This document shows positions 2,217 to 39,412 of a stretch of 40,484 nt of DNA, piece after piece. The DNA is from Parcubacteria group bacterium M6-OD1-1 (GTDB lineage Bacteria; Patescibacteriota; Minisyncoccia; GWC2-36-17; M10-OD1-4). Under the pieces are notes generated by a model. The model was not told where the DNA came from. It saw nothing but the letters and a program-made list of their open reading frames with translations, and searched no databases. Every line of letters starts with the position of its first letter. Position 1 is the first letter of the stretch. The stretch lies in NCBI GenBank assembly GCA_003056085.1, contig LSNK01000002.1:1-40484 (forward strand). The letters are read 5' to 3'. Made by a program: the position numbers and the translations under genes.

Positions 2217-3374
2217 TTAATCCCTTAAAAGCTCATTTATTGATGTTTTTGAGCGTGTTCTTTCATCTACCTGCTTTATTATCACAGCACAATTTAAGCT
2301 GTGACTGCCATTTTTAGCGGGCAATGAACCGGGAACCACAACAGACCCCGCAGGAACACGACCAAAAGTTATTTCATTAGTCATTCGATTGAAAATTTTG
2401 GTACTTTGACCAATAAAAACCCCCATTGATATGACAGATCCTTCTTCTACCACAACACCCTCAACTATTTCAGACCTTGCTCCGATAAAACAATTATCCT
2501 CAATAATAGTCGGATTAGCTTGCAATGGCTCCAGAACACCGCCGATTCCAGCCCCGCCGGAAACATGAACATTCTTGCCAATCTGAGCACAAGAACCGAC
2601 AGTAGCCCATGTATCAATCATGGTGCCGCTATCTACATAAGCTCCGATATTCACATACGAAGGCATAAGAACAACATTAGGAGCAATAAAAGAGCCTCTC
2701 CTTACAGCACAAGGTGGAACGGCACGAAATCCTGCTTGCTGAAAACTTTTTTCGTCCCAGCCATAAAATTTAGAAAAAACTTTATCAAACCACGCAGTTC
2801 CACCAGGACCACCTGATATTATAATGTTGCTATTAATCTTAAATGATAATAACACAGCCTTTTTTAGCCATTGATTAACAACCCATTCATCATGTATCTT
2901 TTCTGCGACACGAAATACACCAACATCAAGACCAAAAATAGCAGACCCAACAGCATTTCTTATATCACCATCCTTAAGGCCTGAATCGATACTGCCTTTG
3001 TTTTCCCATGCATTTTCGATAACACTTTTAAGATTATCATCGTATAATGATATCATTACATGAATATTTGGACTTCGTAAGAAATCAATAGTCGGGTGAG
3101 ATTCTTCGGAGTCCCAAAGTTCAGCAAAAAACTCTACAACTTTATGATGATTGCTTTCATTAATTATGAATTCCAGACGCCCCTCAGACAAAAAGTCAAA
3201 AAGTTGAGATGAAATGTACTTCCCGGGCTGAGAAACTATTCGCATATTTTCTCCATCCGAATTTATAAGATCAATAACTTTCACCGGTCCATTTTCCGGC
3301 AAATAACCCATAACATCCTGCAGTGCTTTGCAATTCATTTCAAAAGAATTGATAAAGCTGACATGCTTACTCAT
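2217..3374 (-). CDS. dapD: Tetrahydrodipicolinate N-succinyltransferase (DapD)-like hexapeptide-repeat acyltransferase with an N-terminal extension of about 110 aa
   Basis: The C-terminal 270 aa or so follow, from memory, the gammaproteobacterial DapD sequence closely: [118 protein letters not shown]...G..SL.CAVI.K.VD..TR.K..INELLR. There is an AGGAGA SD upstream. GC is visibly higher than in neighbouring genes. Confidence 0.85.
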
Positions 3375-4493: not shown

Positions 4494-7400
4494 ATTTATA
4501 GTCCTTGCATCCGTCGCAAAACCCCTGCTTACTGCTGCACTCAAACTCCAAGTTCATTATCTTTTCGTAAACTTCTTTTATTGTTTCTTTCAGCTCCGAT
4601 ACATCTTTTTCTGTAAATTCAACTGCTTCTTTTTTGTATTTTTCGTCTTTCCCCTGCACAAAATCCAACTCTCCAACAGTCATATTATATTTAAATCTAC
4701 TGTCCAAATCGCATAAAATTTTATAAAAAACTATCTGTCTTTTTAGATTTCCTTTGGAATCTTTCGTTTTCCCCTCTATTTGGTTTTTTGTTTTTGCGCT
4801 TCCGGTTTTATAATCTATAACTTTAACATCTGTTGTATTTACTTTTTCTATTTTATCAATTTTTCCGGTTAAATGCACGTCATCCAAATACACTTCATGT
4901 TTTGAAAAGTTATATTCAACGGCTTCAGGGACAATCATGCTGTCTTTATACAAATTGTAATATCCCAAAATACCTTCTGCGCCTATTTTTATTAACTCTT
5001 CTTTCTCTTTGTATGTTAAAATTTCTCTTTCGATCGCATTTTTGTATGCCGACACAAGAAACTCAGAAGACGGCAGCTTGTCTGTATTTTTAAACTCCAA
5101 AAAAAACTTTTCTAAGGCTTTATGATACGCCGTTCCAAGCACCATATGCTTGTTTTTTGCTTCAGGTATTCTTATTAAGTTTCTAAACTTAAATTTTCTC
5201 GGACACTCAAGATAGTTGTCTAAGTGAGTAACGCTCAGCTTGTAGTCTGCAAGCAGTGACTTTAAATATTCATCTTCTTTTTCCTTTTGAATTTTGCCTC
5301 CTCTTAATTTTTTATCCAAAAATTCTTCTGCGTCATCTATCTCTTTATCACCTAAAATATTATTTATATATTTTTTGTCTATTTCCTCAACAAATTGAGA
5401 AATTGATTTTTCTTGGACATTGCCGTTTGAAACATACTCTTCAGCATAAGTAATATATGCTTTTTTCTTTGCTCTTGTTAAAGCTACAAAAAAAAGTCTT
5501 CTTTCATCCTCATTTTTTTCAAATTCAATTTTGGAAGACTTGGTTAAAAGATTTTCAGGAAGCTTTATCTTATCCATACTTCTTTTATTTCCCCATGTTT
5601 TATCCACCGCTTTTGTTATAAATACATATTCAAATTCAAGCCCCTTTGCCTTATGAGCTGTCATAATTCTTACTCCTTTTTTTTGAAGCAAAAACGACTC
5701 TTCTTTTATTTCAATATTATATTCATTGTATAAATTAATTTTTTCTAAAAACTTTTTTGTATCAAGCTCTCTGTCTTGTAAATTTAACTCTTTTATTTCA
5801 GAAAACAAACTGGAAATATGCCTTAAATATTCCATTTTCTCGTCTTTATTAAATATCCAATCCAAAAATCCGCTATCTGAAAGAACCTTCCCGCAAAATG
5901 CAGTAAAAGTTGTTTCCGCGCTTATCTTTTTAAATTTAAGAAACTTATCTATAAAATCGGCTATATTTTGCTTGCTTATGAGATCCAAATTTTCTAAATT
6001 TTCAGCTTTTGAAATAATATCAAAAATATTCACCTTATCCTTCTTGGAATAATTAATTTCATAAAGATATTTATACAATTTATACACATCAAGCGCATCT
6101 ATGTTTAAAAATCCAAGAGACATTATATCTAAAAGTTTTTTGTCGTCGTAAGGATTCTCAATAATAGAAAGATAATCCAAAAACGCTCTTACAGAAACCC
6201 CCTGCAAAACATTATTTGATGCTTCAAACACCACAGGAATATCTCTTTTTATTAAAAATTCCGCCATTTCATGACTTTCTCTGTTTGTCCTTGAAAATAT
6301 CGCTATTTCATCAGAGTTTTCTCCTTCTTCTATTAATTTTTCTATCTTTTTTGTAATATAAAACTTCTCTGCGTCGCCAACGGAAAATTTTACAACATCA
6401 ATTTTTTCCCCTTCGCCTTTTTGAGAATTTAACTTTTTATCTACGCCGTCTAAAAAATTACCAACTCTATTTTTGTTCTTATCAATCATAGAGAAAGAAG
6501 AATCTAAAATATTTTGAGTAGATCTGTAATTTTGTTTTAAAACTATAGGACTTTTTACGCCATATTTATCACTAAAAAATAAAATATTTTCCAAAGACGC
6601 TCCTTGAAATCTGTAAATTGACTGATCGTCATCTCCCACTACAAAAATATTGGGTTTTTCATCTGAAAGAAAGCTTGTAAGCAACGAAATTATTTCGTTT
6701 TGAGCCTCGTTTGTGTCTTGATATTCGTCTACCATTATATAAAGATACTGCTCCTGATAACTTGCTAAAAGTTCATCGTCTTCCTTAAACTTATTAACAA
6801 CAAACAATATCATATCCTCGTAGTCATAAAGCCCTTTTTCTTTTATTTTTTTTTGGTATTCTTTGTAAATTAAAGAAAGCTCCTTGTTTTTTAAAACTTG
6901 TTTTTCTTTTTTCTGCCACTCGCCCGTTGGTTTTCCGGTTCTTGGATTTATCTTATGCTCGCTTTTTAACTCTTTTTCTAAAATTTTTAAATTTTCGTCT
7001 AATTTTTCAGGCGTAATATCTTCGCGTTTCAGCTTTTGAATACTTTTTAATATATCAGACAGATAAAAATATCTATCTCCAAATGTAACTAAATTTTTCA
7101 GATCTAAAGAGTTTATAATATTTCTTAAAATCTCAATTCTTTCTATATCGGATATTTGTTTAATCCCTTTTGCAAATATAAATTTTTCCGGAAATTCATT
7201 TATCACTTGAGAACAAAAACCATGTAAAGTAGTGATGTTCACCTTATAAGCATCAGTCCCCATTATCTCAAGAAGTCTTTTTTTAATAGCCGTAACACCA
7301 CTTTCGGTAAAAGTTGTTATCAATACGTTCTCTGCGGGCGACAACCCCTCTTTGCATATATAAGCCGCCCTCATGCCTATTATCTCAGTTTTTCCGGTAC

Positions 7401-7622: not shown

Positions 7623-7651
7623 TTGACACTTGGGTTATATTCTGTTAATAT
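7623..7651 (+). promoter_or_regulatory. Near-consensus sigma70 promoter for the GC-rich cassette gene
   Basis: TTGACA (7623-7628), a 17-nt spacer, then TAATAT (7646-7651). A strong SD, TAGGAGGT (7688-7695), lies 5 nt before the ATG at 7701. Confidence 0.55.
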
Positions 7652-7700
7652 CAATCTGATTCAATCTCGGATCAATAAATAACAACGTAGGAGGTTCTAT

Positions 7701-8408
7701 ATGAAGAACTCGATGTTCTTTCTTATTTTTGCAATTATCGGACTGGTTACCGCTCCCATCGCTCAGGCCGAAACAGCCTATACTGGTGATGTCAGCGTCA
7801 AATCAAAAGATGTCTTTGATAACGGCCGAGTAATCTGGGACAATGCCGTACTTCAAGCAACAGGTTTTGCCGATTTTGGCAATGGCTGGCGCACTGAAGC
7901 AATGGCATCCCTGGGTAATGGTGCAAGTATGTATTCTGACAGCAATGGATCCCGGGTAAGTTTTGCCGGATACCGGGATATGAAAATGGGCAAGTTCGCC
8001 ATCACGGCGGGTCTTGCGTATCACGATCTCAGAAACATACGCAACACCAACCAGGATGTCCTCATCCCGTCCATTTATGTCAGCATGCCGACGGGCAGCA
8101 ATACGTCTCTCTTTACAGAGGCGAAAGGCTACATCGTCAAAAACGGCAAGGACGGCACATCGCTTGAATTTGGCGGCTCGCTCAATCATAAAATTATGGG
8201 CATTGGCGCAAATCACAGTCTGAGCGTACTTCGCGACAACACGTCGCTGTACAATTTCAGGAAAGGAACCCTGGCTGTTTACAGCGGTGAGCTGACGTGG
8301 AAAAAAAGCAAAAATATGACCATCCATCCGCTGAACTTGCGGATAATTGGCGAGAAAAATCAATCGGCAATTACCGTAGTCGGCGCCGGGTTAACCTATA
8401 AATTCTAG
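7701..8408 (+). CDS. Secreted protein with beta-barrel outer-membrane-protein hallmarks (family not identified)
   Basis: Sec signal peptide MKNSMFFLIFAIIGLVTAPIAQA/ET. Alternating hydrophobic beta-strand patterns occur throughout (FAITAGLAYHDL, LAVYSGELTWK, AITVVGAGLTYKF), ending in a C-terminal aromatic ...TYKF. GC is far above the surrounding sequence (about 45-50% by eye). Confidence 0.6.
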   Translation: MKNSMFFLIFAIIGLVTAPIAQAETAYTGDVSVKSKDVFDNGRVIWDNAVLQATGFADFGNGWRTEAMASLGNGASMYSDSNGSRVSFAGYRDMKMGKFAITAGLAYHDLRNIRNTNQDVLIPSIYVSMPTGSNTSLFTEAKGYIVKNGKDGTSLEFGGSLNHKIMGIGANHSLSVLRDNTSLYNFRKGTLAVYSGELTWKKSKNMTIHPLNLRIIGEKNQSAITVVGAGLTYKF

Positions 8409-8426
8409 TCAAATAACCCTGCTCTG

Positions 8427-8457
8427 GGGCGACATCGCAATGATGTCGCCCTTTTTT
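8427..8457 (+). terminator. Intrinsic terminator of the GC-rich cassette gene
   Basis: 10-bp stem gggcgacatc/gatgtcgccc with a 5-nt loop and a T6 run. Confidence 0.75.
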
Positions 8458-8480
8458 ATTCCAAAAATTCCCCACAAACT

Positions 8481-8499
8481 ACATAGGTGTCACCTATGT
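8481..8499. repeat. Short copy of the CATAGGTGTCACCTATG palindrome family
   Basis: ACATAGGTGTCACCTATGT is a perfect palindrome around a central T. Its core is identical to the 27-nt palindromes at 28487, 28955 and 29514. Confidence 0.8.
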
Positions 8500-8527
8500 A
8501 AACTCACTTATATAAACTTAAAATACT

Positions 8528-8571
8528 AAAATGACAACTTTGGGGACGGTCGTCCCCAAAGTTGTCATTTT
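8528..8571. repeat. Long perfect hairpin (about 21 bp stem) with GACGGTCGTC centre and A/T-tract flanks
   Basis: aaaatgacaactttggggacg gt cgtccccaaagttgtcatttt. The central 10-mer is the reverse complement of the centre of the hairpin at 23107-23150. Confidence 0.8.
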
Positions 8572-8719
8572 TATTGATACTTAAATATTTTTTTAAAAGA
8601 CTTTTTGAGGTATGTTAATTCTAAATAAAAACGTCATACTTGATTAATTTTAATCGCTTTGGCTTTTTCTTTGTTTTACTAATTTCTTTCTCTTTGAGTT
8701 AGAATTTAAAATAAACCCA

Positions 8720-15628: not shown

Positions 15629-16199
15629 TTAATCTATCACATCAACTAACTGAAAATCATTTTTATCAATAAGAAATTTATAAATAAAATCTGACGAGGT
15701 GTCACACACAGAATCAGTAAAGTTGCAATTATAAACTTGTGATAATAGTGCTCTTATGCAACCTTCGTGAGCAACGAAAAGAATTGTATCATCCTTATTA
15801 TTTTCATATTCTTTTATATATGAAAATAATCTGTGCTTCATTACATTAAAACTTTCCCCCCCCCCCCTGGCGCAATTAAATCTGGATCATTTAAATTAAG
15901 CTGTTTTTTACATATTGATCTTGCCTCCCATTTAATTGACCGGAGTTTCTTTCTCTTAATTCGGGCGTATATTCAATTGACGTTTTAATGATATCCATAA
16001 TTATTTTTGCAGTCTGAGAACATCTTCATAGGTCACTCGAGATTATTTTTGTAATATTTTTATTTTTAAGAGATTTCCCTAATTTTATAGCTGCACTTTT
16101 TCCAAGCTTAGTTAATCGAGAATCTTTGTGTCCTTGTAATCTTTTTTGAATATGCCATTCGGCTTGAGGGTGTCTAATTATAAAAAGAATTATGATTAT
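15629..16199 (-). pseudogene. Histidine phosphatase (phosphoglycerate-mutase-like) family gene, disrupted
   Basis: Manual translation gives IILFIIRHPQAEWH...RLTKLGKSAAIKLGKSL...KIISSDL[TGA]RCSQTAKII...PELRERNSGQLNG. This is followed by a frame change at a T6/A6 run (15904-15909), then ...LNLNDPDLIAPGGG, then a frame change at the C12/G12 run, then ESFNVMKHRLFSYI...ILFVAHEGCIRALL. There is no ATG at the family-typical start (ATA ATC ATA ATT). Confidence 0.75.
15856..15867. repeat. C12 homopolymer (G12 on the coding strand) inside the phosphatase pseudogene
   Basis: Read directly as actttCCCCCCCCCCCCtgg. Lengths of 7, 10 or 13 would restore the ...APGG(G)ESF... frame. 12 does not. Confidence 0.9.
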
Positions 16200-27299: not shown

Positions 27300-28334
27300 C
27301 TATTGAGTTGATACTAAAACATCAGATAATTCATCTACATTTTCCAAAATAATTCCCGTTCCAATAACAACAGAAGCAAGTGAATCCTCGGCAATTCTTA
27401 CCGGAATTTTCGTTTCATCTTCAATTCTCTTATCAAGTCCGCGAAGCAAAGAACCTCCGCCCGTTAAAATAATCCCATTTTTTAAAAGATCGGCAACGAG
27501 TTCCGGCGGGGCAGATTCAACAGTCAACTTCACAGCGCTTACCAACGCATTAACAGAATGAGCAAGAGCTTTCCTTATCTCTTCATCGGAAACGATAATT
27601 TCTTTTGGAAGCCCTGAAACCAAATCTCTTCCCCGCATAGCGCTGTGCAAATTTTCTTCTTGAGGATACGCAGAACCGACAGCTATTTTTATTTCTTCCG
27701 CCGCCTTCTCGCCTATCAAAAGCTTATACTCATCACGAGCATACCTTATAATATCTTGATTTAACTTATCTCCCGCTATTTTCAAATTTTTTGCAACAAC
27801 AACGCCTCCCAAAGATATTATGGCAATATCTGTCGTACCTCCTCCTATATCAACAATCAAGTTTCCAACAGCTTCATTTATCGGCATTCTTGACCCGATA
27901 GCCGCCGCCATAGGCTCTTCAACCAAATAAACCTCTCTTGCGCCTGCATTTTTTGCGGCTTCATAAACCGCTCTTTTTTCAACTTCAGTAATCTGAGAAG
28001 GAATTCCTATAACAACTCTCGGTCTTGGAATTAAAGAAAAGGATTCTTTATGCACTTTGTCTATAAAATACTTGAGCATCTGCTCGGTAACTTCAAAATC
28101 AGAAATAACACCGTCAATTAAAGGCCTCACGGCAGTAATGTGCCCTGGTGTTCTGCCGACCATCTTTTTTGCTTCCGTGCCGATGGCTAAAACCTGACCG
28201 GTTTTTTGATTTATAGCAACAACAGAAGGCTCGTTTATCACAATACCCCGCCCACGAACATAAACAAGAGTATTTGCCGTACCCAAGTCTATCCCGACAT
28301 CTTTTGAAAAATAACCAAAAATTTTGTTTAACAT
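27300..28334 (-). CDS. mreB: Actin-like rod shape-determining protein MreB
   Basis: DLGTANTLVY, VIGIP, DIGGGTTDIA and ILTGGGSLLRGLD. 344 aa. Confidence 0.93.
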   Translation of the reverse strand: MLNKIFGYFSKDVGIDLGTANTLVYVRGRGIVINEPSVVAINQKTGQVLAIGTEAKKMVGRTPGHITAVRPLIDGVISDFEVTEQMLKYFIDKVHKESFSLIPRPRVVIGIPSQITEVEKRAVYEAAKNAGAREVYLVEEPMAAAIGSRMPINEAVGNLIVDIGGGTTDIAIISLGGVVVAKNLKIAGDKLNQDIIRYARDEYKLLIGEKAAEEIKIAVGSAYPQEENLHSAMRGRDLVSGLPKEIIVSDEEIRKALAHSVNALVSAVKLTVESAPPELVADLLKNGIILTGGGSLLRGLDKRIEDETKIPVRIAEDSLASVVIGTGIILENVDELSDVLVSTQ

Positions 28335-28340
28335 CTTATT

Positions 28341-28389
28341 TTAGAATTTTGAATATAAAATATAGAACTTAGAATTTAAAAAATTCTAA
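28341..28389. promoter_or_regulatory. Three copies of the 9-mer TTAGAATTT (two direct, one inverted) just upstream of mreB; operator-like
   Basis: ttagaattt occurs at 28341-28349 and 28369-28377, and aaattctaa at 28381-28389. The last two form a perfect 9-bp inverted repeat around aaa. Confidence 0.4.
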
Positions 28390-28486
28390 ACCTAAAAAAA
28401 CCGCTTTTTACGATAAAAGCATAGTATCACAATAAAAAAACAATTTCAATTCAGAAAATAAACTTACAAAGAGATAGTAAATGGTA

Positions 28487-28513
28487 AATCCCATAGGTGT
28501 CACCTATGGGATT
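28487..28513. repeat. 27-nt perfect palindrome, copy 1
   Basis: AATCCCATAGGTG T CACCTATGGGATT, 27 nt after the stop of the 28541-28894 gene. There is no U-tract on the minus strand. Confidence 0.9.
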
Positions 28514-28540
28514 ATCTTAATGGGAATGAAATTATCCTCA

Positions 28541-28894
28541 TTAATAAATCAAAGCTCCGGCAACCACCATAAGATTTACAATTTCCCAAAGGATAAAGCT
28601 TACAATAATTGTTTTATCTTTATGAGCAATACCATAAAAAATCCATGGGAGTGTAACAATCGACATAAGGATCCATGAAATCGCAGAAACGCCATCTGCT
28701 TGGCGTGTATGAAAAATCTGATATACCTGTGGGATAACGGTAAATGGACCAACTATTCCTGCGATAAATGTTATTTTATCAAGAGTAATTAGATATTTTG
28801 ATTGTGGCGGAAGTACAGGTGCAAGTCCTTTTTGACTCAATATCTCCTGTTCTTTTCTGATGCGTTTATGTTTTAAACCTGTATGTATATGCAT
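28541..28894 (-). CDS. SemiSWEET/PQ-loop-type small sugar transporter with a short N-terminal extension (putative)
   Basis: Three TM helices in the C-terminal 85 aa or so, with the PQ motif (FTVIPQVYQIF) and a YGI motif in TM3, as in bacterial SemiSWEETs. Confidence 0.6.
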   Translation of the reverse strand: MHIHTGLKHKRIRKEQEILSQKGLAPVLPPQSKYLITLDKITFIAGIVGPFTVIPQVYQIFHTRQADGVSAISWILMSIVTLPWIFYGIAHKDKTIIVSFILWEIVNLMVVAGALIY

Positions 28895-28954
28895 GAAAAG
28901 TAAAATATTTTATATAAATAATAACTCAAATTCTTATATATAAGAATAACACAC

Positions 28955-28981
28955 AATCCCATAGGTGACACCTATGGGATT
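28955..28981. repeat. 27-nt perfect palindrome, copy 2
   Basis: AATCCCATAGGTG A CACCTATGGGATT, 10 nt after the stop of the MazG-like gene. Confidence 0.9.
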
Positions 28982-28991
28982 TACTATAGTT

Positions 28992-29348
28992 TTATATTTT
29001 CTTCTTTGTTAAATTATTTTCAGAATTTTTATGATTATATTTCTCAAAAATTTCTTTTTTGACCAAATTAAATGCGTCTTCGATGTCCACTCCCAATTGA
29101 TTTGCAAGACGGCAAGTTCCAAAAAACAAATCGCCGATGCCATCAATAAAAATATCTTTATTTTCTTCAACAAATTTTTTACGCTCTTCTTCAGTTTTAT
29201 ATCTCAGGTGTTGAGACATCTCTATTAGTTCTTCGTGCAGATGATCGAACTTATCAATATTTGGAATATCTTTCCAATTATTACGCTCAGCAAAAAGTTT
29301 GAGAACTTTCTGAGCATCTTTTATTGTAGTGATCTGTTTTTCTTCCAT
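28992..29348 (-). CDS. MazG-like all-alpha nucleoside triphosphate pyrophosphohydrolase (putative)
   Basis: HLHEELIEMSQ (EExxE) plus IDGIGDLFFGTCRLANQLGVDIEDAF, which is the typical small MazG domain layout. 118 aa. Confidence 0.6.
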   Translation of the reverse strand: MEEKQITTIKDAQKVLKLFAERNNWKDIPNIDKFDHLHEELIEMSQHLRYKTEEERKKFVEENKDIFIDGIGDLFFGTCRLANQLGVDIEDAFNLVKKEIFEKYNHKNSENNLTKKKI

Positions 29349-29513
29349 TATAATTTAAATTAAAATTTTAATAACTATTTGTTTATAGTATACTAAATAT
29401 GGGTTTTAATATAGTGATTTATTTACCCTTCAACTTCTCCTCTAATATTTTTATCTCATCGCGGAGAATTGCGATGGTTTAAAAATCAAGGATAGCCTCA
29501 CCACCCTACCAAT

Positions 29514-29540
29514 AATCCCATAGGTGTCACCTGCGGGATT
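29514..29540. repeat. 27-nt palindrome, copy 3 (2 arm mismatches)
   Basis: AATCCCATAGGTG T CACCTGCGGGATT, 2 nt after the stop of the 29543-29944 gene. Confidence 0.85.
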
Positions 29541-29542
29541 CT

Positions 29543-29944
29543 TTATTTTTGCAGCTTATTTAAAAACCACCTACTATATTCTTCTGTTAAAGACCGAATC
29601 CAGTTTACTATCGACTTTTCTGAAAAAAACTTTTCAAATCTGTCATCGTTATATTTTTTATTATAGTGAAACGTAGCATTTCGATAATCTTTTAAGAATT
29701 GCTTATTTTTAGATTTTAATAATTTATCGATTTTAGGATCAGATAATTCTAATTTTTCCCAACATTCAATTAAGACATACATTAGCCCATACCAAAGTGA
29801 CATATACATCATAGATTCAATTTTGGTAATTTTTGTTTCTGGTTTTTGAATGCTCTGTTCGAAATGCACTCTCATCCTGTCTGCCCAAATATATTTGCGA
29901 TGCAAGGCTTGTATTTTTTGATTATTTGAAAAGTTTTTTCTCAT
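29543..29944 (-). CDS. Hypothetical 133-aa protein carrying an Rx4H (HEPN-like) motif
   Basis: The motif is RNATFH (DYRNATFHY), about two-thirds along a probably all-helical sequence. No other recognisable motif. Confidence 0.35.
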   Translation of the reverse strand: MRKNFSNNQKIQALHRKYIWADRMRVHFEQSIQKPETKITKIESMMYMSLWYGLMYVLIECWEKLELSDPKIDKLLKSKNKQFLKDYRNATFHYNKKYNDDRFEKFFSEKSIVNWIRSLTEEYSRWFLNKLQK

Positions 29945-30153
29945 TTTATTTAGTAAACCGAATTTATTTTCTCGAATTATTTAGACGAATTATTTCAGAC
30001 AACGCTCGTATATATCTGGTGTTTCGACCATAAGTTGATAATATTATGGATAAATATTTAGTGTTAGCCAAACGCGAACCAGATATACGCTATATCTGAC
30101 GTAATAATTCATTCTTAATTCTAACTAAAGGGAGGAATAAAATTAAGATTTTT

Positions 30154-30789
30154 TTATTTTAAGATAAATGAAGATGTAAATTCATTAAAGTAAGTATCGT
30201 TAATATTCATTGTAAAAGGATAGGACACTGATAAATTAATAGAGTCTCCATTTGCGATAAAGCTAATACCCTTGTTTCTAATTTTCATTCCATCGCTTGT
30301 GTATTCAATTAGATACTTTCGCGCAGGAAATCCTTTATATTCTTTAATTTGACTGGTGGTCACTTTTACATCATCCCCTAGTCCAATAATTTTACCTTTT
30401 ATAAAACTATTTAAGTAAGCGTTGATTGATTCAGTGCTATAAATTTCGGTATCTGTATAAGTAACACTATACTGGATAAAATTATCATTATCAGAAATGG
30501 AGAGCGATTTATAATGTGTAACAGGATAACTAGACAGATTAAAAGTGGTCACTTCTGGTTGTTCTGGAAATAAAATTTGGAACCCTTTTGACTTGTCGGT
30601 ATATAATTCAAATCCAGGTATTATTACTGGAGCGCTTGATTCTATGTTTATTTTTTCTATTGGCACATTGTTTTTTTGTATATCATTTAAGTAGAATTGT
30701 AAAATGATGTATGTAGTAGTAATTAAAAAAATAATTAATAATCCTTTTAATTTTTTATACCAAGGTTTTTCTTTTTGATTGCTTTCCAT
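30154..30789 (-). CDS. Hypothetical membrane-anchored extracytoplasmic protein
   Basis: One N-terminal TM (LLIIFLITTTYIILQFY) followed by a beta-rich domain of about 170 aa. No family recognised. Confidence 0.55.
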   Translation of the reverse strand: MESNQKEKPWYKKLKGLLIIFLITTTYIILQFYLNDIQKNNVPIEKINIESSAPVIIPGFELYTDKSKGFQILFPEQPEVTTFNLSSYPVTHYKSLSISDNDNFIQYSVTYTDTEIYSTESINAYLNSFIKGKIIGLGDDVKVTTSQIKEYKGFPARKYLIEYTSDGMKIRNKGISFIANGDSINLSVSYPFTMNINDTYFNEFTSSFILK

Positions 30790-30886
30790 ATTATTATGGT
30801 TAAAAATAAAAAGTTTTAATTTTTTGCCACGATAGTGACATAAAGATGAATTATTATTTCACACAACTCGTTTTCATCCTAACTTT

Positions 30887-32158
30887 TTACACTACACTTC
30901 CAACATCAGCCACCTTCACCATCTTACTTTCACTTTCATTTCTTTTTTTGACTTCCACTGAATCTTCTTTTAGAGTTTTTTCTGTTATGAGTATTCTTAT
31001 CGGAATACCTATAAGGTCTGCGTCTTTTAGTTTTTCTCCAAAGGAAGATTTTTCTCTATCGTCATAAAAAACATCAATTTCCTTTTCTTGAAAGTCTTTG
31101 TAAATCTTTTCCGCTGTTTTTATTATATTTTCATTTGCAGTCTCGTTTTTTGAATTAAGAACTATAAGATGCACCGTAAAAGGAGCAATATTTTCAGGCC
31201 AAATAATCCCATTTTCGTCGGAATTCAACTCAACCACGGCGCCCATAAGTCTTGTTGGACTCATCCCGTAGGACCCCATATAAACAAACTCTTCCTTCCC
31301 TTCTTTATTTTTGTAAGTTAAGTTAAATGCTTCTGAAAACCTATGCCCTAAAGAATATATATCTCCAACTTCTATGGATTTTACTTTTTTAAGTTCACTT
31401 TCTTTTAAATTCAGAGAAAAATCGGCTAAAATCTCATCGTTAAAATCGTCTTTGTTTATGGCGATTTTTTTCTCTTCATCAACAATATACACTTCATCTT
31501 CCCCCGCCTCAGAAAGCGTTTGAAACTCATAAGAATATTTGGAAAAAGACCCTCCTGACGAAATAGTTAAATATGTTTTTTCCCCCATGCCGAGCCTATC
31601 AAAAACCTTCATATATACATCTTTCATTTTTTCGTAAAATTCTTCATGTTCTTCTTTATTTTTTGAAAAAGAATAGAGGTCTTTCATTAAAAACTCTCTG
31701 CATCGCATAAGCCCCGACTTCGCTCTTTGTTCATTTCTAAATTTTGTTTGAATCTGATAAGCGTAAAACGGCAAATCTTTGTATGATGAAACAAAATTTT
31801 TCATTATTTTTGCAATAACCTCTTCATGGGTAAACCCCAAGCCCAACTCTGCCCCGCTTTTCAATTTTGTTTTAAACCAATTGTCCACCACATCGTCGCT
31901 CCATCTTCCGGTTTTTTCCCAAGTTGCTTTATCCTGCAAAACAGTCATTAACACTTCTTGTCCTCCTGCCCTATTCATTTCTTCCCTTATAATATTTTCA
32001 ATCTTTTTTAAAACTAAAAGCCCCAAAGGTAAAAAAGAATAAACTCCCGCCATTTCTTTATCTACAAAACCAGCTTTTATTAAAAGCTGGGCATTTTTTG
32101 ACACCTCATCTTTTGGAGCTTCTTTTCTTGTTTTTGTAAAAAGTTGACTTTGTTTCAT
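30887..32158 (-). CDS. proS: Prolyl-tRNA synthetase, short bacterial-type form without the INS editing domain
   Basis: N-terminus MKQSQLFTKT.KE.PKD....S..LL.KAG. Class II motifs are FRNE.RAKSGLMRCREFLMKD and GSYGMS. At 423 aa it is too short to contain the editing insertion of about 180 aa. Confidence 0.88.
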   Translation of the reverse strand: MKQSQLFTKTRKEAPKDEVSKNAQLLIKAGFVDKEMAGVYSFLPLGLLVLKKIENIIREEMNRAGGQEVLMTVLQDKATWEKTGRWSDDVVDNWFKTKLKSGAELGLGFTHEEVIAKIMKNFVSSYKDLPFYAYQIQTKFRNEQRAKSGLMRCREFLMKDLYSFSKNKEEHEEFYEKMKDVYMKVFDRLGMGEKTYLTISSGGSFSKYSYEFQTLSEAGEDEVYIVDEEKKIAINKDDFNDEILADFSLNLKESELKKVKSIEVGDIYSLGHRFSEAFNLTYKNKEGKEEFVYMGSYGMSPTRLMGAVVELNSDENGIIWPENIAPFTVHLIVLNSKNETANENIIKTAEKIYKDFQEKEIDVFYDDREKSSFGEKLKDADLIGIPIRILITEKTLKEDSVEVKKRNESESKMVKVADVGSVV

Positions 32159-39362: not shown

Positions 39363-39412
39363 ATATTTAAACCCTCCGATATGTTCGAGGTTGAACCTCG
39401 AACATGAAAATT

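Follow-up and report, generated by a model that had tools for sequence, protein, structure and literature searches.

A palindrome dispersed in ultra-small Patescibacteria genomes is probably a REP element with a cognate RAYT-like protein

The stretch analysed here (positions 1 to 40,484 of contig LSNK01000002.1 of Parcubacteria group bacterium M6-OD1-1; hereafter the window, meaning all 40,484 nt) carries three copies of a 27-nt palindrome just past the stop codons of three consecutive small genes. We conclude that these palindromes are repetitive extragenic palindromic (REP) elements with a cognate REP-associated tyrosine transposase (RAYT), a reading to which we give a probability of about 0.8. 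The observations behind it are a repeat family of restricted phylogenetic range, placement of its copies at gene 3′ ends, a protein with RAYT homology and fold, REPs around the gene for it, palindromes particular to each lineage, polymorphism in the number of units and a variable gene islet. The system is thus of a known kind (REP–RAYT), found here in a phylum of ultra-small genomes, and is not an integron-like array. REP/RAYT systems have been characterised mainly in large-genome Proteobacteria. A search of the accessible literature pairing RAYT or REP with Patescibacteria, candidate phyla radiation (CPR) or Saccharibacteria returned no relevant description, and the public annotation of the RAYT protein is 'transposase' only.

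RESULTS

Three palindromes behind three small genes

A pattern search of the window with the 27-mer AATCCCATAGGTGNCACCTATGGGATT, which consists of 13-nt arms and a 1-nt centre, found it at three sites and no others: free of mismatches at 28487-28513 (centre T) and at 28955-28981 (centre A), and with two mismatches at 29514-29540. No match was obtained in 100 dinucleotide-preserving shuffles of the window. Both changes in the third copy fall in the right arm (CCTGCGGG), leaving a stem with one mismatch and one wobble. RNA folding showed that each perfect copy forms a 12-bp stem with a 3-nt loop. An earlier note on this DNA had described the palindrome as occurring three times, twice perfectly and once with two arm changes, at 2-27 nt after the stop of a single minus-strand gene; the search and shuffles bear out the first point and the measured gaps of 27, 10 and 2 nt the second. 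The shorter core that it placed at 8481 beside a GC-rich cassette is also real (ACATAGGTGTCACCTATGT, 8481-8499), and the adjoining open reading frame (ORF) has 48% GC. Within the 27-nt unit, a 19-nt core (CCATAGGTGNCACCTATGG) is enclosed in the window by the outer stem AATC/GATT. Copy 1 is kept in two strain contigs (L034 and L048) that are 98.5-99% identical to the window. The copies and an adjacent hairpin are as follows.

28487-28513, no strand: REP copy 1, perfect 27-nt palindrome, 27 nt past the stop of the SemiSWEET-like gene and 152 nt before the mreB ATG
28955-28981, no strand: REP copy 2, perfect 27-nt palindrome, 10 nt past the stop of the MazG-like gene and 60 nt before the SemiSWEET-like ATG
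29514-29540, no strand: REP copy 3, decayed, 2 nt past the stop of a 133-aa ORF and 165 nt upstream of the next gene
8481-8499, no strand: REP variant B, ACATAGGTGTCACCTATGT, between two canonical terminator hairpins and downstream of the 48% GC ORF
29489-29507, minus strand: a further hairpin, unrelated to the REPs and T-rich in its tail, which follows copy 3 after 6 nt in the coding direction

The core is a dispersed repeat of Patescibacteria

We scanned 185,579 genomes, one per bacterial or archaeal species (596 Gb), for exact occurrences of the 19-nt core. It was present in 33 stretches, 26 of them in about seven low-GC metagenome-assembled genomes (MAGs) of Patescibacteria; the other seven were single matches in unrelated genomes, six with 60-73% GC and one with 44%. 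By our own estimate, about nine matches are expected by chance (18 specified bases in 596 Gb). The core is therefore a dispersed repeat of Patescibacteria, occurring elsewhere at chance level only. Likewise, a scan of viral contigs for the 19-mer found it in one unrelated virus family of 41% GC only, again at chance level. The Patescibacteria MAGs that bear the core are labelled Paceibacterota, Parcubacteria, Nealsonbacteria, Niyogibacteria and Saccharibacteria. MAG133 (JAYEKQ01) has at least 22 copies on many contigs, 19 perfect and 3 near-perfect, and at its loci all 40 of 40 occurrences of the 9-mer half-site lie inside full palindromes, with none solitary. The outer stem varies yet remains complementary in other lineages (ATAT/ATAT, TTTTCC/GGAAAA and CCTC/GAGG). 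Copies are intergenic, and most of them come no more than about 60 nt after the 3′ end of a gene; one stands directly behind a tRNA.

In a metagenome scan, the window-type 21-mer matched only contigs of the VAPM and VAPK assemblies, which also contain contigs 98.5-100% identical to the window. About ten further REP loci were found in contigs of the window's own metagenome, almost all intergenic, and the density is about one copy per 10-40 kb. The copies in these contigs come after unrelated genes, including those for RNase H, an MFS transporter and an O-antigen-ligase-like/Wzy protein; one lies between convergent sigma factor and Pif1 helicase genes, and another in the dCTP deaminase-thyA spacer, 206 nt past the stop. 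Some stand between other hairpins in clusters like bacterial interspersed mosaic elements (BIMEs), as in contig L049 and at 8409-8600 of the window. The genome- and metagenome-wide motif search that the earlier note had proposed yields dispersed copies after many unrelated genes. That note would have given up its cassette idea for a motif that follows many core genes and coincides with transcript 3′ ends while the three small genes stay in place in relatives. Genome-wide, copies are indeed found behind a wide range of unrelated genes, some of them core genes and one a tRNA, but the three genes are not stably syntenic.

Three further observations concern these repeats. Tandem duplications of half a REP stand beside full REPs, with TGACACCTATGGGATTTT after a full unit at 996-1041 of L046 and three to four ACGACCTATGTAAAT units at 1-60 of L068, which suggests slippage or abortive copying at the hairpin. 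A second repeated palindrome, TGTTCGAGGTTNAACCTCGAACA, occurs at 39383-39405 of the window (in the intergenic space 39363-39412), at 4145-4167 of L049, where it is 8 nt from a REP, and at 4487-4509 of L046, where it lies in frame in a glycosyltransferase ORF and encodes VRGSTSN; this family may be a second REP type. Finally, many short contigs of the lineage (L034, L036, L040, L042, L055 and others) start or stop at a REP or within about 60 nt of one, and the REPs appear to fragment metagenome assemblies of this genome.

A RAYT-like gene is flanked by the same palindrome

A Y1/HUH RAYT-like gene, of a kind that the earlier note had proposed to look for, is flanked by the palindrome. It occupies 3043-3747 of L050, a contig of the same metagenome, and its 234-aa product (P0001) is an IS200-like HUH/Tyr protein with the N-terminus GEYYHIYNRG and the motif NHFHLLI; L050 is 99% identical to MAG contig L028 of the species collection. 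P0001 matches Pfam Y1_Tnp above the cut-off (E 1.4e-8), and its sole NCBIfam match is the REP-associated tyrosine transposase family (REP_Tyr_transpos, NF047646; E 1.3e-10). In an alignment of 28 homologues, the HUH residues H85 and H87, the tyrosines Y141 and Y145 and a Tyr-rich helix (YLKYLFAYIHLNP) are invariant. We modelled P0001 with AlphaFold2 (mean predicted local distance difference test score, pLDDT, 83; predicted template-modelling score, pTM, 0.82). The best PDB match to the model in Foldseek was 4ER8_A, the E. coli TnpA-REP protein with a REP hairpin (E 2e-5; target-normalised TM-score 0.64), and the IS608 and ISDra2 TnpA structures ranked behind it.

The palindromes lie immediately around the gene. 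Upstream in L050 is a tandem REP pair, TCCCATAGGTGTCACCTATG-A-CATAGGTGTCACCTATG, that ends 30 nt before the ATG; the unit just upstream of the gene (2994-3012) is identical to variant B of the window. Downstream, ATCCCATAGGTGACACCTATGGGAT overlaps the stop codon, so that the last residues, PIGVTYG, are encoded by the REP. In L054, from a strain 99% identical, a single unit takes the place of the upstream pair, and the centre base of the downstream unit is flipped. This difference between L050 and L054 shows, at the sequence level, recent turnover of REP units.

At least 7,900 proteins are related to P0001 at E <= 1e-5. Among the best 120, identity is 51-58%, except for one near-identical protein and one of 71%; the named relatives all belong to Patescibacteria (Paceibacterota, Minisyncoccia, Vogelbacteria and Nomurabacteria). 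Three other Patescibacteria lineages have RAYT homologues (54-71% identity), each with a different palindrome on its flanks. One is TGTAGAAAGGACGGTCCTTTCTACA, with two units upstream and a longer one downstream that share a GGAC/GTCC core, the upstream pair having perfect arms and a 1-nt centre. Another is AGAAAGGGGNCCCCTTTCT, with perfect arms and a 1-nt centre, two units upstream and one downstream. The palindrome of the closest homologue (71%), ACATAGGACCGACCTATGT, has the same CATAGG/CCTATG stem as the window REP, with a 5-nt loop and a different apex.

The gene neighbourhood is shared as well. In four lineages (L059, L062, L054 and the context of P0006) the RAYT gene is preceded by the gene for a protein of about 1100 aa; three of these lineages also have, downstream of it, an ORF of about 200 aa and an LTD/beta-helix or Ig-like surface protein of about 1100-1240 aa. 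No second RAYT copy and no tnpB were found in any locus searched, and a scan of viral contigs for RAYT relatives gave only three distant matches. Published hallmarks of RAYTs are flanking by their own REP type, a specific RAYT-REP association and housekeeping-like inheritance (PMC3337134; PMC5581495). The Patescibacteria pattern of own palindromes, synteny and near-absence from viral contigs is in line with these hallmarks.

We also asked how the RAYT gene relates to the genome of the window, in which tblastn with the RAYT did not find it. For P0001, for the MreB of the window (P0121) and for its MazG-like protein (P0123) alike, the longest contig listed measures exactly 207,056 nt, and the RAYT and window proteins co-occur in SRR14803397, SRR6439370 and SRR6439371 and in the VAPL and VAPM assemblies. 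The shared listing and samples, which are strong but indirect evidence, indicate that the RAYT gene probably lies on the same 207-kb contig as the window, outside the window itself.

Several points weigh against the REP-RAYT reading. The RAYT gene is outside the window, and its placement on the same contig comes indirectly, from the identical 207,056-nt listing. P0001 scores 41.3 bits against an equivalog cut-off of 80 for NF047646 and is, judged by its sequence, a distant branch outside that equivalog. A PDB sequence search with P0001 found nothing and a profile search gave only a marginal ISDra2 match (E 0.8), which is why the fold comparison was needed. The identical 19-nt core is also present in lineages where any RAYT should be at most about 71% identical, and the apex differs beside the 71% homologue; as far as these sequences go, REP-RAYT specificity is not strictly tracked here. 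The canonical 5′ tag of REPs is GTAG (or CGTC) (PMC3733652). The arms of the window REP carry C-ATAG-G in its place, those of a Nomurabacteria relative T-GTAG-A, and the window palindromes are perfect, with a 1-nt centre and no bulge. Copy number is low, at tens per genome against hundreds for gammaproteobacterial REPs. Lastly, no pair of empty and filled sites was found for the window copies, and the closest relatives with data (MreB 86-90% identical) lack the whole islet and not only the REPs.

Terminator character of the palindromes

A first alternative holds that the palindromes are lineage-specific intrinsic terminators or RNA 3′-end hairpins, which share their sequence through gene conversion or selection and have no copying enzyme. 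We consider this unlikely as an account of their origin. Supporting it, nearly every copy in MAG133 takes the form AAAAAATG-core-CATTTTTT, a textbook bidirectional terminator, the copies sit at gene 3′ ends and after a tRNA, and the RNA hairpins are stable. Copy 2, moreover, passes the terminator scan: its coding strand continues GUGUGUUAUU, and it is flagged as terminator-like on the minus strand with the tail GTGTGTTATT. The earlier statement that no U-tract follows the palindromes is thus only partly true: it holds for copy 1, but copy 2 has a marginal T-rich tail. Copy 3 is followed, 6 nt on, by a separate hairpin (29507-29489) that ends in UGAUUUUUAA and is more likely than the REP to terminate the 133-aa gene. 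An Rfam scan of the window at the gathering threshold gave no matches.

Against this alternative, copies 1 and 3 lack U-tracts, and termination in the window does not require this sequence: the remaining terminators are, as the note had said, canonical hairpins of A-tract, stem and T-tract, the stem sequence being unique to each. The palindrome also brackets the RAYT-like gene, the homologues of which are bracketed by their own palindromes, and it occurs in tandem and half-unit duplications (L046, L050 and L068). REPs could nevertheless serve as terminators in a secondary role, although this would not account for their origin. REP doublets flanked by A/T runs have been co-opted as terminators in the case of the Pseudomonas REPINs (PMC3337134), and the terminator form in MAG133 matches these published REPs.

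An insertion sequence or an operator

A second alternative is that the Y1 gene and its hairpins make up an autonomous insertion sequence (IS) of the IS200/IS605 type, a selfish element whose solo palindromes are derivatives comparable to palindrome-associated transposable elements (PATEs) or miniature inverted-repeat transposable elements (MITEs). The Pfam Y1_Tnp match and the fold matches to the TnpA proteins of IS608 and ISDra2 are in line with this, as are the subterminal hairpins of IS200-family elements. We nonetheless find it distinctly improbable: the gene keeps the same neighbourhood in four distant lineages, has no second copy in any locus and no tnpB, and belongs to a family nearly absent from viral contigs, and both its best fold match and its sole NCBIfam match are RAYT-specific.

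The palindrome could also be the operator of a dimeric DNA-binding regulator controlling the mreB, SemiSWEET-like and MazG-like genes, in keeping with its perfect dyad symmetry and 1-nt centre, with the position of the copies 60-165 nt upstream of the next gene, and with weak promoter-like hexamers that overlap copies 1 and 2. Copies between convergent genes or directly after a tRNA, however, have no promoter to control, the downstream genes are unrelated in function across loci, and the MAG133 copies lie inside A/T-tract terminators. Furthermore, the stem flanks vary yet stay complementary, which points to selection for a hairpin and not for a fixed duplex site. The suggestion of a dimeric protein-binding site, made in the earlier note, therefore loses ground to the occurrence of copies at promoterless sites and the covariation of their flanks as a hairpin, and we regard an operator as very improbable.

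The proS-mreB islet and the cassette reading

The three palindromes lie in a short islet between two conserved genes.

27300-28334, minus strand: mreB, conserved anchor on one side of the islet
28541-28894, minus strand: SemiSWEET/PQ-loop-like gene, 117 aa, variable islet (sub-threshold family matches; absent between proS and mreB in L069 and L071)
28992-29348, minus strand: MazG-like gene (all-alpha NTP pyrophosphatase), 118 aa, horizontally mobile (weak family matches)
29543-29944, minus strand: 133-aa ORF with an RNATFH motif, islet member (family not assigned by Pfam, NCBIfam or PADLOC)
30154-30789, minus strand: 211-aa ORF with an N-terminal transmembrane segment, islet member with no REP after it (no family assigned)
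30887-32158, minus strand: proS, conserved anchor at the opposite end

The functional labels that the genes had been given stand to different degrees. SemiSWEET-like and MazG-like are backed only below family thresholds: NCBIfam SemiSWEET_3 (cut-off 100 bits) matches with E 2e-15 and 56.7 bits, Pfam MtN3_slv (cut-off 23.7) with 23.3, and the MazG-like label draws on a Pfam match of E 0.009 and a TIGR00444 match of E 2e-4. The label 'HEPN-like' for the 133-aa ORF found no support in Pfam (at E up to 5), NCBIfam or PADLOC, and the translation offers only the RNATFH (Rx4H) motif.

Gene order between mreB and proS differs among relatives, as the earlier note had thought worth comparing. A relative with 90% MreB identity (L069) has proS and then mreB directly, across a 375-nt gap (7627-8000), and lacks all four small genes (211 aa, 133 aa, MazG-like and SemiSWEET-like). 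Another, with 86% MreB identity (L071, 6389-8000), has a Fic gene in the proS-mreB position. The view that accessory genes are wedged between proS and mreB is upheld by these arrangements. In a 99%-identical strain (L035), CYTH-DHFR-peptidase S51 and a 102-aa ORF replace the segment from proS through the 211-aa and 133-aa ORFs to REP copy 3 upstream of the MazG-like gene. The proS-mreB junction (28335-30886 of the window) is thus a hot spot of gene content, a variable islet. The MazG-like gene shares 85% nucleotide and 88.6% amino acid identity with a 32% GC gene (L063, 6001-6351) inside a Patescibacteria genome of 47-48% GC, where identity drops to 30% for MreC and 44% for PBP2. Because of the high identity of the gene, the contrast in GC and the low MreC and PBP2 identity, a recent horizontal transfer between distant Patescibacteria is clear from the sequences. 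In L069, which has no REP, we observed two gapless perfect palindromes with a CGATCG centre, of 52 nt (4566-4617) and 34 nt (7903-7936), one of them at a position upstream of mreB equivalent to that of REP copy 1.

The earlier note had likened the islet to an array of integron cassettes, the palindromes taking the part of attC sites. The pattern of one gene and one palindrome repeated three times, the variability of the islet and the horizontal mobility of the MazG-like gene are what commend this. ORF scans of the window showed no integrase, tyrosine recombinase or transposase, in agreement with the note's remark that no integrase is visible there, and the precomputed Pfam matches of overlapping contigs included no recombinase. 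The 27-nt perfect units differ from the 57-141-nt imperfect attC sites with their extrahelical bases, and a search of 28400-29650 for GTTRRRY found only one, at 29008 inside the MazG-like gene, and none at the palindromes. The breakpoint in the 99%-identical strain falls about 23 nt ahead of the MazG-like start codon and about 140 nt from palindrome 3, so the expected gain or loss of units at palindrome boundaries was not seen; the transferred MazG-like gene in the distant genome is without the palindrome, and the motif occurs genome-wide after core genes. Differences in islet gene content are not bounded by the palindrome, and the REPs are not shown to be cassette joints. The attC interpretation is accordingly abandoned as scarcely credible, and the note's other suggestion, REP/BIME punctuation, is favoured by the dispersed extragenic repeat and the RAYT-like gene flanked by it.

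All four REPs in the window (4/4) adjoin variable or foreign genes, and none (0) is found among the housekeeping operons, which take up 35 kb. Most simply, REPs would build up at sites that tolerate insertion, here the wide intergenic spaces behind the genes of an islet assembled recently. Such space is lacking in the window's housekeeping operons, which are tightly packed. A bolder proposal, that the REP-RAYT pair helps to acquire and shuffle single accessory genes as an HUH counterpart of the integron, with REPs marking captured 3′ ends at hot spots such as proS-mreB, appears improbable.

Patescibacteria depend on the uptake of DNA and nucleotides, and in Neisseria inverted pairs of the DNA uptake sequence (DUS) form terminators. 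That the half-site is such an uptake sequence is scarcely conceivable, given half-sites that never occur singly and a density of about 1 per 10-40 kb where an uptake sequence would have about 1 per kb; a DUS-like signal was ruled out on the finding that all half-sites at the MAG133 loci lie within full palindromes.

DISCUSSION

A possible mechanism

Under the REP-RAYT reading, REP copies would stay identical through copying or maintenance by their cognate RAYT, a domesticated IS200-like HUH/Tyr nuclease of single-stranded DNA. By analogy with E. coli TnpA-REP and IS608, the 27-mer would fold as a hairpin on single-stranded DNA, and the RAYT would recognise this hairpin and cut beside it by means of its Tyr nucleophile; hairpin recognition and Tyr cleavage are described in the biochemistry of TnpA-REP and IS608 (PMC3479197). 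Copies may then spread into, or be retained at, tolerant sites just past stop codons, which here would be the intergenic spaces of the islet. Once transcribed, each REP would form a 12-bp RNA hairpin at the 3′ end of its small gene, most likely serving as a 3′-end stabiliser, an attenuator or a weak terminator. In other lineages the same core, with acquired A/T tracts, would constitute a full bidirectional intrinsic terminator. For the REPs of this window, anatomy makes a function at the RNA level about an even chance.

Comparison with known systems

The closest counterparts are the REP/REPIN-RAYT systems (E. coli REP/BIME, PDB 4ER8; P. fluorescens REPINs). Both consist of short extragenic palindromes, mostly just past stops, and of a Y1 HUH/Tyr protein with its own flanking repeat, the repeat being lineage-specific and varying with the RAYT lineage; in both, some copies are A/T-tract terminators, and the RAYT, which in the known systems behaves as a vertically inherited gene, may do so here (PMC3337134, PMC5581495, PMC3479197). 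Unlike classical REPs, the present ones are perfect 27-nt palindromes with a 1-nt centre, occur mostly as singlets instead of inverted doublets, number tens instead of hundreds, and bear the tag ATAG instead of GTAG/CGTC. The RAYT, too, is longer than the 165 aa of the E. coli protein, at about 220-235 aa with a C-terminal helical extension, and the host is an ultra-small Patescibacteria genome.

With IS200/IS605 elements and PATEs or MITEs the system shares the transposase superfamily, the fold and subterminal DNA hairpins as recognition elements, but it differs from IS200/IS605 in its fixed syntenic position, in the lack of tnpB and of multiple identical copies among the loci seen, and in repeats dispersed without the gene. 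Its likeness to integron attC cassettes is a superficial gene-then-palindrome periodicity and a variable neighbourhood; in contrast to these, it has no IntI and no R′/R″ core, its units fall well below attC sites in length and are too perfect for them, and structural variation does not break at the palindromes. Neisseria DUS pairs and Correia-type terminator repeats are likewise sequence-identical hairpins reused at many genes, but the palindrome described here has no solitary half-sites, a far lower density and an association with an HUH enzyme.

Significance

The RAYT family described here numbers at least several thousand proteins, shows about 50-58% identity between Patescibacteria classes and keeps its synteny; it occurs together with cognate palindromes in bacterial genomes that are among the smallest and most streamlined known. 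Streamlined genomes shed dispensable DNA, and the retention of a transposase-derived gene with its repeats therefore argues that the pair is useful to its host. Candidate host roles are transcript 3′-end formation, mRNA stability and genome organisation. On the practical side, the repeats appear to break metagenome assemblies, with many contigs ending at or near a copy.

Other features of the window

At 7701-8408, the window encodes a 235-aa ORF with a signal peptide and no Pfam match, of 48% GC against 33% GC for the window; behind it come a canonical terminator, REP variant B and a third hairpin, and it is probably a foreign gene for a surface or outer protein. A poly-C run of about 13 nt (about 15858-15870) lies in the AT-rich segment 15629-16246 among short minus-strand ORF fragments which, by their sequence, look like pieces of a histidine-phosphatase-like gene; the tract may mark a homopolymer frameshift, a gene under phase variation, a pseudogene or a flaw in the assembly. 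Finally, taxonomic labels conflict: the closest named MreB belongs to Ca. Azambacteria (90%), and the MAG with the RAYT contig (L028), probably of the same species as the window, is labelled Ca. Saccharibacteria.

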